Origin: Fervidobacterium sp.
Lineage (GTDB): Bacteria; Thermotogota; Thermotogae; Thermotogales; Fervidobacteriaceae
DNA: 64,000 bases
Direction of reading: 5' to 3'
Assembly: GCA_049970055.1 (NCBI GenBank)
Contig: JBMFNR010000001.1
Coordinates: 544,001 to 608,000, forward strand
Shown here: piece after piece, positions 61,001-64,000 of the stretch
Layout: every line of letters starts with the position of its first letter
Numbering within the stretch: the first letter of the stretch is position 1
Position numbers: made by a program

Positions 61001-64000
61001 CCACCTTGCATTCCTATTTCGCTACCGTAATAGATAAATGGAACACCAGGATAAGTGAATTGTAGAATAATTGCAAGTTTCCTTAAAGATTTCTCAGGTA
61101 TAACCGTAGCAATACGAGGTGTATCGTGGCTATCAAGCATGTTCCAACAACCATATATGTTAGGAGTTAAATTGTAAGCACTTTGAAGTGGCTGTGTAAT
61201 ATTCTTTAATTCGCCTTTTAACCAGCCTACAACACTTTCTCTGAAATGGTAGTTCATAATACCATCGACAACTTCCCAATTCGATGGGAAATTCCAAGTT
61301 TCTGCTACAACATATTTTTCGACAGAAACAGCTTTAGCTCTTGCAGTGATTAGTGCTGTATTAACGTATCCAAGATCAAATGCAACATCCAAACGCCAAC
61401 CATCAATACCTAGTTTTAAATAATGTTCAACAACGCTTAAAAGATATTCCCGTACGGTTGTCTCCTCCCAATTCCACTCTGGCATATCTTGAACACCTTG
61501 CCATGATCTGTAACCATTTTTGTATATGGAAAATTTTGCAATATGCCTTTTATCTCCCTTAAGTGCCCTTTTAAACCATTTATTCTCTTTGCTTAGGTGA
61601 TTGAACACACCGTCGAGCATTACTCTGAAGTTATTTTCTTTAGCTGCTTTTAAATAGAACTTAAAAGCGCGTTCGCCTCCAAATTGAGGGTCAATTTTCA
61701 TATAATCTATCGTATCGTACTTGTGGTTTGATGGTGACAAGAAAATAGGAGTTGTGTAGATAAGGTTTACCCCGAGGTCCCTTAAATAATCAAGCTTTTC
61801 CGCTATTCCCCATAAGTCTCCACCGTAGAATTCGAAACAATGTTCAATGTTTGGTTTGTGTTTCGGTAACACGTACCAATCTGCTATTTTCCCTCCACGC
61901 GATGTGTAAAGCTGTGTTTTATCATGTACACTTTTCCCTTTACCTATAGCAAATCTGTCTGGAAAAATTTGGTAAATCACCGATTCGTATACCCAACTTG
62001 GTAATGGATAATGCATACTATGACACACTCCTCTTCACTAGTTTGTTAATTTACATAAAACTTGCGTACATAAAATTATAGCATAATTATTTATACGGTT
62101 CCACACATATAGTGTACTCTGACAGTTGAGTGAATAGTTGAACAACGCTATTTGTGTGGTATAATACTCTGGAAGCTTAAAAAGTTAAATTAAAAAGAAA
62201 AGATCCTAAACTAAAAACGTGGGGGGAAGTATATGAAATATGATTTTCTAAGCCGAACGCTTGCCGTTATCAACGATTTTTCAGTCCAAGAGCAACTTTT
62301 TTTGTACAGTAACACGAAACGACTGAAAGAAAAAGTAAAAAGCAAGGAAGATATTTCAGAATTTCAAATTAAGAAGGATACGAGTATCTACATAGTTTTT
62401 GTTGAACCGTCAACGCGTACCAAAGAATCATTCATAAATGCCGCAAAATTCCACAAAAACGCAAAAGTAAACATCTTCGATTCTGAGCACTCCTCGTTCA
62501 ATAAGCAAGAAAGTTATGTTGATACGTTTAATATGCTTACGGGCTACAGTGAATACTCCATTTTTATTTTGAGAACACGACTAGAAGGAGTAGTAAGGCT
62601 TTTGGAGCAAAAAGTTGGCGAATTTTCAAACAGACATGGTATAGAAAGACCCGCTTTCATCAACGGTGGAGACGGAAAACATGAGCATCCAACACAAGAA
62701 TTATTAGACGAATTTACGTTTCTTGAACAGATGAAGTTTGATAATTCCCACATAAGAATAGCGTTGGTTGGTGATTTATTGCACGGAAGGACTGTTCATT
62801 CAAAAGCAGATGGATTAAAGGTATTCAGAAATGTAGAAGTTGATTTAATCGCTCCTGAAGAACTCCAAATGCCAAGAAGTTACATTGAAAAAATGAAAAG
62901 GAACGGTTTTGAAGTAAGAATATATAATTCAATAGATGAATATCTTTCAGCAACTACTCCCGCATCTATATGGTATTTCACACGGCTTCAACTTGAACGA
63001 ATGGGTGAAGATATACTTGAAAAAGCTCCACTATTAAAAAAAGCGGTGACGTTCAGAAAAGATATGCTCGAAAAAATCCCACAGGGTACAAAATTTTATC
63101 ATCCACTCCCAAGACCAAAAATTGACCCTGAGATACCTACATTCCTAGATACCCTTCCTTTGAACGGTTGGGAAGATCAAGCGATAAATGGATACTGGGT
63201 AAGGGTTGTCTTGCTCTCAATGCTTGGAGGTGCATTAATTGCAGATTTTGATACTACTGTAAAAAAACAAGAATTAGATGATAATTTTATCGTTCCTGCA
63301 CTTATTGTTGATGGTATGAAGGGTGTTGAGAAGGAAGGAAAGAGAGGCATTAAACCTATAGATAACGGTACAGTTATTGATCATATTGCAAAGGGAAAGT
63401 CAACAGATGAAATATACAACACAATAATCAAAATCAGAAGGATATTGAGGTTATATGACGTGGACAGTGCGGATGGAATTTTCAAATCTGCCGATGGGAA
63501 TTACAAAGGTTACATAAGCCTTCCAGACAGATACCTATCTTTCAAAGAGATAAAAAAACTTGCAGCAATATCACCTAACACGACGGTAAACATAATTAAA
63601 AACAGGAAAGTTGTCGAAAAATATCGATTGCAGTTGCCTCCGAAAATATACAATTTCGATGAGATAAGGTGTAAAAACGAAAACTGCATTACTAATCCTG
63701 CGCACGGTGAACCCGTAAGTGCTTCATTTGTACAAATTGATGGTAAATTTGTATGTGAGTATTGTGAAACTGTCCATGAATATCACGAAATATGGAACGT
63801 AAAGTAAATAACAATGACGCCAGCAAAATGCCCAAGCGAAATACTTGGGCATCTTTATTAATATCTTGAAGTCATTTTAATAAAAAAGCTCCCCGGTTAG
63901 GAACCGGGGTGGGAAGGTGTGGTGGCCGTTGTGAGGTCGAGTCCTCACTATGTATGCATTCTTCATTATAACTTCACTTTGTCATTTTTTCCATTAACAT

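Follow-up and report, generated by a model that had tools for sequence, protein, structure and literature searches.

A C-rich 3′ untranslated end of rex as a probable RNA regulator of hydrogen and NADH metabolism in Fervidobacterium and related heat-loving bacteria

Introduction

The closest described counterpart of the element considered here is RoxS/RsaE of Bacillus and Staphylococcus. PMC5419742 reports that the promoter of the small RNA (sRNA) RoxS is repressed by Rex and that RsaE/RoxS carries several unpaired C-rich regions (CCCC), which pair with G-rich sites in its targets. The Fervidobacterium element, which lies directly 3′ of a rex gene, would likewise be a short RNA whose unpaired C-rich bases pair with G-rich ribosome-binding regions of NAD(H)-linked mRNAs, and it too is tied to the NADH sensor Rex. 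It differs from RoxS/RsaE in sequence and structure, which do not match, and in its host phylum; it appears to have one seed rather than several C-rich regions; and where RoxS/RsaE acts on TCA-cycle genes, the element, in an anaerobic thermophile, is predicted to target hydrogenase, NuoEF-like, and Rnf genes. RoxS, moreover, stands as a gene by itself and has a Rex operator at its promoter, whereas the element sits in rex's own 3′ untranslated region (UTR) at 14 of 14 loci, lacks a conserved promoter, and has a hairpin whose half-sites are wrongly spaced for the Rex consensus. In mode of action the element would be like RoxS/RsaE, and it stands outside that family; the proposal of a RoxS-like post-transcriptional arm of the Rex regulon, made in a first-pass annotation of this DNA, is supported.

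Enterobacteria possess Hfq-type sRNAs derived from 3′UTRs, such as CpxQ and SdhX. Like the element, these occupy the 3′ end of a protein-coding gene, share its intrinsic terminator, and hold a conserved seed just upstream of that terminator; here, however, the parent gene is a transcription factor of the same circuit, and both accumulation and processing of the RNA are putative. This sRNA class is the subject of a review (PMC9438474). In icaR mRNA of Staphylococcus aureus, as PMC3868564 reports, a 3′UTR motif pairs with the ribosome-binding site of the same mRNA. The element also places a C-rich, anti-Shine-Dalgarno-like motif in the 3′UTR of a repressor mRNA; its own start, however, is a poor match, and its best matches are unlinked operons.

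The element is best read as a rex 3′UTR-borne, possibly processed, anti-RBS riboregulator, one through which these thermophiles probably control their hydrogen and NADH metabolism. On the comparisons set out below, the probability that the mRNA of rex paralog A has a functional 3′ untranslated end, with a C-rich seed pairing in trans with the ribosome-binding sites of redox genes, is put at about 0.68.

Anatomy of the rex 3′ end

The window is the whole stretch of DNA that was analysed, 64,000 nucleotides of one Fervidobacterium sp. contig, and an offset of 544000, rather than 576000, converts window to contig positions. Two rex paralogs are present in the genome, and the copy bearing the element, paralog A, ends an operon of NuoE-, NuoF-, and HydA-like genes. 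Features around its 3′ end are listed in window coordinates unless otherwise indicated.

G000:C1:607977-608630 (contig coordinates): coding sequence of rex paralog A, extending beyond the window end
63976-63974, minus strand: stop codon TGA of rex paralog A; the coding sequence runs past the window end
63949..63973, minus strand: A/T-rich spacer of 25 nt, from the rex stop to the hairpin; candidate processing site or transcription-start region
63931..63948, minus strand: 5′ hairpin, with a 6-bp stem GTGAGG (63948-63943), loop ACTCGA, and CCTCAC (63936-63931)
63910..63930, minus strand: C-rich seed of 21 unpaired nt, AACGGCCACCACACCTTCCCA, which is proposed to pair with ribosome-binding sites
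63882..63909, minus strand: intrinsic terminator common to the element and rex, with an 8-bp G+C-rich stem, 3-nt loop, and T6; hairpin CCCCGGTT-CCT-AACCGGGG at 63909-63891 and T6 run at 63887-63882
63828..63852, plus strand: separate terminator hairpin of pyrBI (terminator-like site), outside the element
62233-63807: pyrBI open reading frame (ORF), convergent with rex

The whole element spans 67 nt (63948-63882, minus strand) directly 3′ of rex, and its G+C content from hairpin through terminator stem is 63%, against 37.5% for the window. Its predicted fold has a free energy of -30.6 kcal/mol at 37 °C (z = -4.47), which none of 200 shuffles equalled; at 65 and 75 °C both hairpins stay, and the 21-nt stretch is unpaired with a probability of 0.93-0.96, the range at 65 °C alone being 0.94-0.96. 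A scan for terminator-like sites gave the terminator stem 8 pairs, 6 of them G-C. The element contains one such C-rich unpaired stretch of 21 nt, and a further CCCC run lies inside the terminator stem. Anatomy and fold thus bear out the arrangement first annotated, namely a hairpin, a near-invariant unpaired stretch, and an intrinsic terminator.

Conservation and genomic linkage

BLAST recovered the element, at 84-92% identity, from all 13 genomes of its own genus (the genome of the window, G000, included) and from both genomes of a second genus; the G011 and G012 copies sit at the ends of contigs. Across 13 relatives, identity to G000 is 0.87-0.91 for the element versus 0.65-0.75 for the last 600 nt of rex, and the Rex proteins of the 14 element-bearing relatives are 72-82% identical by protein search (73-81% by BLASTP). 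The element is found 3′ of rex and on the same strand at 14 of 14 loci, while the neighbouring gene on its far side differs. The early description of a conserved, GC-rich, rex-linked element therefore holds.

Within a 13-row alignment the seed core is near-invariant, changing once in a single row (G003); this change is uncompensated and counts against the favoured explanation. The stem of the 5′ hairpin is invariant in all 13 rows, whereas its loop of 5-6 nt differs in sequence and length, and the terminator keeps its stem around a variable loop. Conservation extends to the last bases of the spacer (A.A.ATA before GTGAGG), where columns A3, A5, A7, T8, and A9 are invariant. None of the 14 predicted base pairs showed covariation, an absence already recorded in the first-pass annotation. 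That no Rfam family applies was also confirmed: 4227 models run against positions 63000-64000 gave seven weak matches, all below gathering score and all to families other than RsaE; the best (E-value 0.053) covered terminator-like parts only.

Origin of the transcript

The element had been described as either 3′UTR-derived or independent, and the first of these is now the better supported. No terminator separates rex from the element at any of the 14 loci, across spacers of 18-140 nt, so rex transcripts must include it. Sites resembling sigma-70 promoters (at least 9 of 12 matches) occur at four of the 14 loci, at inconsistent distances. With no conserved promoter and no intervening terminator, "3′UTR-borne" fits better than "independent sRNA", and for want of a conserved promoter the element as a discrete small RNA remains putative.

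An sRNA gene that merely lies behind rex and is transcribed independently, starting at or just before the 5′ hairpin, would leave targets and mechanism unchanged, and is the least improbable of the alternatives, though unlikely. The home genome does hold a suitably spaced pair of promoter-like sites that overlap, TGGAAA-17-TATAAT (63993-63965) and ATGACA-16-AAGAAT (63985-63958); in all 13 rows, conservation sets in sharply within A/T-rich sequence, a few bases before the hairpin; the distance from element to rex varies over the whole 18 to 140 nt within genera g1 and g2; and in another family of the class an sRNA-like, C-rich gene stands apart and has a perfect promoter. Two promoter-like sites are, however, no more than shuffled sequence yields (1.4 ± 1.2), the sigma-70-like sites across the 14 loci are as inconsistent as described above, and in genera g3, g4, and g5 the homologous stretch begins only 3-15 nt past the rex stop codon.

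A 3′UTR origin also agrees with the features of the 3′UTR-derived, base-pairing sRNAs: the element forms the 3′ tail of a coding gene, whose terminator it shares (14/14 loci), and it combines a conserved single-stranded seed with conserved complementary targets. The RNA ends in a terminator hairpin and U tract, and the genome encodes Hfq (window 15645-15833) as well as an RNase E/G homolog. Release by RNase E-type cleavage is plausible, Hfq may be involved, and the promoter and processing signals at the element are suggestive.

Predicted targets

Complementarity to the 21-nt unpaired seed was scored at 65 °C against 1827 start regions, taken from our own gene calls (1830 ORFs). With genes named by Pfam, the highest-ranking start region was that of a NuoE/HydC-like gene (-19.0 kcal/mol), followed by those of rnfB (-18.1 kcal/mol), the [FeFe]-hydrogenase gene hydA (-17.8 kcal/mol), rnfC (-15.9 kcal/mol), and a second NuoE-like gene (-15.8 kcal/mol). 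Ranks 1-5 of the re-scan fall to redox genes of the kinds put forward earlier as targets. The leaders lie at C2:392282 (first NuoE-like gene), C1:621188 (hydA), C2:395133 (second NuoE-like gene), and C3:124894 (rnfC). All three stand-alone PF01257 genes are found at ranks 1, 5, and 16, and two of the three PF02906 genes at ranks 3 and 8. The home-made gene calls have some wrong starts (e.g., pyrBI), and a scan free of gene calls was added, covering both genome strands in 45-nt windows at a step of 20, with windows of fewer than 10 G skipped; its best three non-self sites were the starts of the first NuoE-like gene, rnfB, and hydA.

Start regions at or below -13.5 kcal/mol numbered 12, versus a shuffle mean of 2.06, and only one of 174 shuffles was as extreme. 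Six members of a 12-gene redox set ranked in the top 10, where 193 shuffles averaged 0.56 and never exceeded 3, with the set fixed by Pfam family after the top matches were known, though following an earlier prior hypothesis. A control with the 16S anti-Shine-Dalgarno sequence placed none of the 12 genes in its top 20; the assembly is without a 16S gene, and 16S 3′ ends from three relatives served to check the sequence used. Shuffled C-rich seeds themselves favour the same G-rich starts (the top-10 mean of 0.56 compares with 0.07 under random ranking), and part of the target signal is therefore composition.

The SRP54-type GTPase and aminotransferase IV genes, non-redox top matches intended as negatives, keep their complementarity within the genus; their sites lie in upstream coding sequence (E-G-V-V codons), which makes them unclean as negatives. 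A DHODB_Fe-S_bind (NfnA/PyrK-like) target was rejected, because its site falls within the coding part of an upstream or extended ORF. Across the genus, the NuoE-like gene that opens the rex operon reaches -8 to -13.6 kcal/mol and is a marginal target. The start of the hydA-like gene in that operon overlaps upstream coding sequence.

Target sites across genera

The sites of hydA, rnfC, and the second NuoE-like gene lie in true 5′UTRs and hold constant below scrambled upstream sequence. The hydA site is invariant in 13 of 13 genomes and the rnfC site is kept in 13 of 13 (two with one change), in keeping with the earlier claim that these two complementary starts are kept in a relative; the site of the second NuoE-like gene is kept in nine of 11. 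Pairing with rnfB is kept in only part of the genus, being weaker in about four of 14 g1 sequences and absent from g2-g5, which counts against the favoured explanation. Two substitutions in the hydA site of g2 preserve -17.8 kcal/mol, as do only 0.3% of 945 double substitutions. Sites at hydA and the second NuoE-like gene were not found in g3-g5, although g3 and g5 carry the 3′UTR element, and this too counts against it.

Homologous C-rich 3′UTRs follow the rex stop codon in all four g3 genomes, in the single g5 genome, and in one of three g4 regions read; from the fourth g4 genome, only the second paralog of rex was recovered. These 3′UTRs of the three sister genera lack the 5′ hairpin. No C-rich homolog appeared in 15 rex 3′ regions from other families.

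The start of the NuoE-like gene tracks its 3′UTR partner through all five genera. Cognate pairs score -19 to -22.9 kcal/mol and non-cognate pairs -6.6 to -19.2. In g3, the 3′UTR sequence GCCAACAUGG stands opposite CCAUGUUGGC in the mRNA; in g5, CCAGUAUGG stands opposite CCAUAUUGG, a G-C to A-U exchange; in G020, UCCAA faces UUGGA (C-G to A-U); and in G015 one C is lost from the 3′UTR and one G from the mRNA box. Genus-specific versions of the 3′UTR thus fit their own NuoE-like leader by compensatory changes and one G-U pair. Furthermore, in four of four g3 genomes, the sole genome-wide match with one mismatch to the reverse complement of the 3′UTR 15-mer is the NuoE-like start region. This co-variation across genera is evidence beyond the earlier claim, and at the level of sequence it shows that the RNA and the NuoE-like start region co-evolved.

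A protein-binding site common to both loci is another conceivable source of such complementary DNA motifs.

Less probable than an independent sRNA gene is that the element is merely a conserved rex terminator or 3′ end—acting in mRNA stability, as a short C-rich site for Rho or another protein, or as a DNA motif—with its complementarity owed to G-rich ribosome-binding sites and chance. Such a reading draws on the invariant stems, which leave the structure without proof from covariation, on the roughly 8-fold enrichment of the redox set by C-rich shuffles over random ranking, and on the likeness of the hairpin DNA to two half-sites (GTGA, TCAC) of the Rex consensus. A terminator, however, needs no 21 invariant unpaired bases, and because these bases and a second hairpin are near-invariant while the loops vary, the element is not a plain intrinsic terminator without other constrained sequence. 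The target counts exceed those of 173 of 174 shuffles and of all 193 shuffles in the two comparisons, the anti-Shine-Dalgarno control does not pick these genes, and the genus-specific fit to the NuoE-like leader is likewise at odds with chance complementarity. The hairpin was also rejected as a Rex operator, since its GTGA and TCAC halves lie 9-10 nt apart, not 6, with variable spacing, and the target promoters have no like palindrome; a scan for classical Rex boxes allowing up to 3 mismatches returned 364 matches and was too noisy for use.

Least probable of all is a purely cis-acting role of the icaR type, in which the C-rich stretch folds back on rex's own ribosome-binding site, or on one in its operon, and sets rex translation or mRNA stability with no regulon in trans: an anti-Shine-Dalgarno-like seed does occupy the 3′UTR of a repressor gene, as in icaR (PMC3868564), and the hydA-like and NuoE-like first genes of the same operon rank 8 and 16 of 1827, but self-pairing of that kind was not found, with rex's own start region at rank 334 of 1827 (-7.4 kcal/mol), the operon's first gene no stronger than the range given above, the genome's best complements at unlinked loci, and the element co-varying with an unlinked operon.

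Proposed mechanism and implications

According to the preferred trans-acting reading, the 21-nt unstructured seed would be displayed between a protective 5′ hairpin and the rex terminator and would pair in trans with mRNAs that encode NADH- and ferredoxin-linked redox complexes, at their Shine-Dalgarno and start-codon regions. The ancestral target was presumably the NuoE/HydC-like first gene of a NuoE-NuoF operon, to which hydA, the second NuoE-like gene, rnfC, and, less surely, rnfB may have been added in the home and sister genus. The RNA would accumulate, and may act as a short species cut out within the A/U-rich bases that precede the hairpin or as the end of an intact rex mRNA. By pairing, it would cover the ribosome-binding site, so that translation is most likely repressed, and expression of the rex operon would thereby be tied to how much of the other hydrogenase and Rnf complexes is present.

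At somewhat better than even odds, a wider proposal unites both redox arms in one transcript: Rex, an NADH sensor and transcription repressor, and a 3′ tail silencing the ribosome-binding sites of NuoE/HydC-like, HydA, and Rnf genes, the pair having co-evolved in at least five genera and the regulon having grown in one lineage on gain of the 5′ hairpin. The element would then be the first riboregulator in this deep-branching thermophilic phylum whose targets are defined, and biological H2 production would have a direct control point at the post-transcriptional level. A full-text literature search pairing Thermotoga or Fervidobacterium with sRNA, Rex, hydrogenase, and Rnf found no report of a regulatory RNA with known targets in this phylum.

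If the reading is true, a distant lineage has its own, independent version of the Firmicutes link between Rex and a C-rich sRNA, here with the two physically fused, and concrete, testable RNA-mRNA pairs come with natural compensatory variants at hand. The choice among electron-bifurcating hydrogenase, NuoEF-like, and Rnf complexes may be made at this switch, with a bearing on fermentative H2 yield in biohydrogen thermophiles. It would also be a clean case of G+C islands marking functional RNAs in the A+T-rich genomes of thermophiles.

Further matches in the class

Searching 151 genomes of the class with a covariance model gave only weak matches outside g1 and g2, of which those in g3 are real rex-linked homologs. 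Matches in family f7 belong to another sRNA-like gene and were set aside; with the NuoE-like leader it pairs no better than at Shine-Dalgarno level (-8.5 to -13 kcal/mol, 55 °C). The other weak matches (L047, L053, L054, L057, L058, and L059) had no rex within 1.5 kb. A second, partial copy of the seed in G001 (L027) lies inside an ORF of 381 aa and is taken as chance.

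The element behind rex

On the minus strand, the stop codon of the redox repressor gene rex is followed by a 67-nt element (63948-63882) comprising a hairpin, a 21-nt C-rich stretch (the seed) and a terminator.

63976-63974, minus: rex stop codon TGA; the remainder of the gene lies past the window end (G000, the genome under study, C1:607977-608630)
Between stop and hairpin, minus: A/T-rich spacer, 25 nt
63948-63931, minus: 5′ hairpin GTGAGG-ACTCGA-CCTCAC
63930-63910, minus: unpaired stretch AACGGCCACCACACCTTCCCA, the seed
63909-63891, minus: 8-bp stem of the intrinsic terminator, with its T6 run at 63887-63882
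62233-63807, plus: convergent pyrBI, with its own terminator hairpin at 63828-63852

The 100-nt region folds at -30.6 kcal/mol (z = -4.47; none of 200 shuffles equalled it), and at 65 and 75 °C both hairpins are retained while the seed is 0.93-0.96 unpaired. G+C content is 63% in the element vs 37.5% in the window. An Rfam search returned no family at the gathering score and seven weak matches, all on terminator-like parts. Because pyrBI has its own terminator hairpin, the element is dispensable for ending that gene. The pyrBI frame is a single 524-aa ORF with fused catalytic and regulatory chains of aspartate carbamoyltransferase; its true start is uncertain, the gene call having picked an internal one.

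The hairpin DNA (63931-63951, minus), TAGTGAGG-N5/6-CCTCACAA, resembles two Rex half-sites, GTGA and TCAC. Half-sites of the Rex consensus lie 6 nt apart; here the halves are 9-10 nt apart and the spacing varies, which argues against a Rex operator, and no palindrome of this kind was found at target promoters.

The first-pass annotation had described a conserved, rex-linked element, and anatomy, BLAST conservation, linkage and alignment all confirm that observation. A BLAST search with 106 nt over the family's 24 genomes placed the element in 13 of 13 genomes of the own genus (g1, counting G000) and in both genomes of the sister genus g2, at 84-92% identity. At all 14 loci it follows rex on the same strand. 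The far-side gene is pyrBI (by BLASTP or as a like-sized convergent ORF) in 9 of 13 relatives and another gene at four loci (L006, L007, L009 and L011); L010 is cut off. Identity to G000 is 0.87-0.91 for the element vs 0.65-0.75 for the last 600 nt of rex. In a 13-row alignment both stems and the seed are invariant or nearly so, with one change (genome G003), and both loops vary in sequence and length; covariation was found in none of 14 stem pairs. In the draft genomes G011 and G012 the element sits at contig ends, which may reflect a strain mixture or an assembly break at this G+C-rich sequence. G011 has two contigs with copies (L010 and L025) whose terminators differ; the G012 loci are L015 and L026.

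A part of the rex transcript

G000 has two rex paralogues, and the one bearing the element is the last gene of its operon. The upstream operon genes and two window genes for RNA-handling proteins are as follows.

C1:612500-612976: NuoE-like (PF01257), first gene of the rex operon
C1:610603-612498: NuoF-like (PF01512), rex operon
C1:608578-610581: [FeFe]-hydrogenase (PF02906), rex operon
Window 15645-15833, plus: Hfq
Window 28097-28879, minus: RNase E/G homologue

No terminator-like hairpin was found in any of the 14 spacers between rex stop and element (18-140 nt). Four of 14 loci have promoter-like sites (9 or more of 12 matches), at inconsistent distances; the two overlapping sites in G000, TGGAAA-17-TATAAT and ATGACA-16-AAGAAT, do not exceed the count in shuffles (2 vs 1.4 ± 1.2). 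With no terminator in the spacer and with promoter-like sites sparse and inconsistent, the element must belong to the rex transcript, and an additional promoter of its own is possible but not supported. The conserved A.A.AUA just 5′ of the hairpin could be a cleavage site.

C-rich rex 3′UTRs across the family

A covariance model built from 13 element sequences and run over 151 genomes of the class gave strong matches only in g1 and g2; weak matches in a further sister genus, g3, sit directly behind the rex stop. The 3′ flank of orthologous rex was then read in 20 more genomes. All four g3 genomes, including the covariance-model loci, carry GCCAACAUGGACACCACACCAUCCCA followed by a hairpin, the single g5 genome carries CCAGUAUGGCCACCAUCCCA, and in the g4 genome G020 a terminator comes after CCAACAUGGCCAACC. 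Two other g4 genomes lack a similar stretch in this flank, and in the fourth, G021, the other rex paralogue alone was seen. No resembling stretch was seen in 15 rex 3′ flanks from other families. Since such stretches accompany rex in g3, g5 and G020 as well as g1 and g2, a C-rich rex 3′UTR appears to be family-wide, save for two g4 genomes, and the 5′ hairpin and variable spacer appear to be g1/g2 additions.

The covariance model also matched loci of another family of the class (L048, L049, L051, L052, L056 and L060). These hold a separate small-RNA-like gene with a perfect TTGACA-17-TATAAT promoter, a stretch of about 55 nt that passes from A-rich to C-rich (ACCCCA...CUUCCCAACCCCC), and a terminator. 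There is no rex within 1.5 kb of it at these loci, and it pairs with the NuoE-like leader of those genomes at Shine-Dalgarno level only.

Predicted targets in G000

From 1830 ORFs called by us, 1827 start regions (-30 to +15) were scored against the seed with RNAduplex at 65 °C; the gene names below are from Pfam.

Table. Start regions with predicted pairing to the seed.
Rank 1: NuoE-like, C2:392282, -19.0 kcal/mol
Rank 2: rnfB-like (PF04060), C1:197870, -18.1 kcal/mol
Rank 3: [FeFe]-hydrogenase hydA, C1:621188, -17.8 kcal/mol
Rank 4: rnfC, C3:124894, -15.9 kcal/mol
Rank 5: second NuoE-like, C2:395133, -15.8 kcal/mol
Rank 6: DHODB_Fe-S_bind, C3:47492, -15.1 kcal/mol (within coding sequence; probably spurious)
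Rank 8: hydA-like gene of the rex operon, C1:610581, -13.9 kcal/mol
Rank 16: first gene of the rex operon, C1:612976, -12.4 kcal/mol

The stand-alone PF01257 genes number exactly three (ranks 1, 5 and 16), as do PF02906 genes (3, 8 and 486); of four PF01512 genes, rnfC ranks 4th and three operon-internal NuoF-like genes 297-504. Twelve start regions reach -13.5 kcal/mol or better, vs a mean of 2.06 in 174 shuffles, one of which was as extreme. A 12-gene Pfam set, chosen after the top list was seen, places 6 genes in the top 10 and 7 in the top 20, vs means of 0.56 and 0.98 (maxima 3 and 5) in 193 shuffles, and shuffled C-rich seeds alone raise these G-rich leaders about 8-fold above what a random ranking gives. 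The 16S anti-SD tail (checked in three relatives) placed none of the 12 genes in its top 20 and one in its top 100. In a gene-call-free scan of both strands of all contigs, the best three non-self sites were the start regions of the first NuoE-like gene, rnfB and hydA, with rnfC 9th and the second NuoE-like gene 11th. The start region of rex pairs poorly with the seed, ranking 334th of 1827, which counts against self-pairing of the icaR kind.

Several ribosome-binding sites reading GGAGGTGTGG (for example at C3:124894, C1:612976 and C1:221315) are complementary to the seed and not to the 16S tail GGAGGTGATCC. The regulon may thus extend beyond redox genes. Within the rnfC coding sequence, 857 nt in (G000, C3 ~124037, minus), is a second strong seed complement (-16.7 kcal/mol).

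Co-evolution of the 3′UTR and its predicted target sites

Orthologous start regions were taken from all 24 family genomes. The first NuoE-like leader pairs with its cognate 3′UTR at -19.0 to -22.9 kcal/mol in all five genera, vs -6.6 to -19.2 for non-cognate combinations. In g3 its mRNA carries GGUGGCCAUGUUGGC across the start codon, complementary to the g3 3′UTR at 14 of 15 positions, and in 4 of 4 genomes the reverse complement of the 3′UTR 15-mer has one genome-wide match with a single mismatch, that very start region; all further matches carry 2 mismatches, and reversed-pattern controls gave 0-1. Within g3, G015 has lost one C from the 3′UTR box (CCAUCCA) and one G from the mRNA box (UGGAUGG), the other three genomes having CCAUCCCA and GGGAUGG. 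In g5, CCAUAUUGG in the mRNA faces CCAGUAUGG with a G-C to A-U exchange and one G-U pair, and in G020 UUGGA faces UCCAA with a C-G to A-U exchange.

Three further sites lie in true 5′UTRs whose upstream sequence is scrambled. The hydA site GGAGGUGGGUGGCCG-AUG is kept in 13 of 13 g1 genomes; in g2 it has two substitutions and retains -17.8 kcal/mol, as would only 0.3% of 945 possible double substitutions. The rnfC site GGGAGGUGUGGU is found in 11 of 13 g1 genomes (with a GGG end in the remaining two) and also in g2 and g3, and the second NuoE-like site GGGAAGGUGUGUGG in 9 of 11 g1 genomes. The rnfB site is partly coding; about 10 of the 14 g1 sequences pair strongly there, and pairing is missing from g2-g5. 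As neither hydA nor the second NuoE-like gene has a site in g3-g5, the larger regulon appears lineage-specific. Two non-redox top matches, meant as negative controls, also stay complementary in g1; they sit in upstream coding sequence (E-G-V-V codons) and so neither support nor refute the target reading.

Proposed mechanism

An sRNA with redox targets had been proposed for this site, and our results support and sharpen that interpretation. Chiefly on the strength of co-evolution, we read the element as a rex 3′UTR-borne anti-RBS riboregulator with a NuoE/HydC-like operon as its core target, and put the probability at about 0.68. Transcription of the NuoE-NuoF-HydA-rex operon would enter the element and end at its terminator. 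The seed would be exposed in the tail, whether this stays on the mRNA or is cut off within the A/U-rich stretch; in the latter case the 5′ hairpin would shield the new end. The seed would pair across the Shine-Dalgarno sequence and start codon of the NuoE-like operon, and in g1 and g2 additionally with hydA, the second NuoE-like gene, rnfC and possibly rnfB, preventing ribosome binding. RNA level would track rex-operon transcription, and production of the alternative NADH/ferredoxin-linked complexes would thereby be coupled to the Rex state. We infer expression of the RNA, its processing, its Hfq dependence and the sign of regulation.

By location, the element is assigned to the class of 3′UTR-derived sRNAs (PMC9438474). 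Functionally, the closest system is RoxS/RsaE, in which, as outlined in PMC5419742, C-rich regions of an sRNA under Rex control pair with G-rich sites of targets from NAD(H) metabolism. Membership of that family was rejected: there is no Rfam match, and architecture, location, targets and phylum differ. A full-text search on Thermotoga and Fervidobacterium (a limited collection, with the genus name assumed) found no such RNA described.

Just upstream of the ribosome-binding site, the NuoE-like orthologue of another family (L326-L330) has a canonical Rex-like box, TTGTGAA-N4-ATCACGAA. At the same position in g1 (L155-L169), 12 of 13 genomes have ATGTTATAATAATCACGAA, overlapping the -10 box, and G007 differs by one base. 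The main RNA target may therefore also be Rex-repressed. The second rex paralogue of G000 (C3:82653-83261; 38% identical) has a Rex-box-like TTGTGAATAAGATAACAA (C3:82614) 30 nt upstream of its start, and both paralogues are present in most family genomes.
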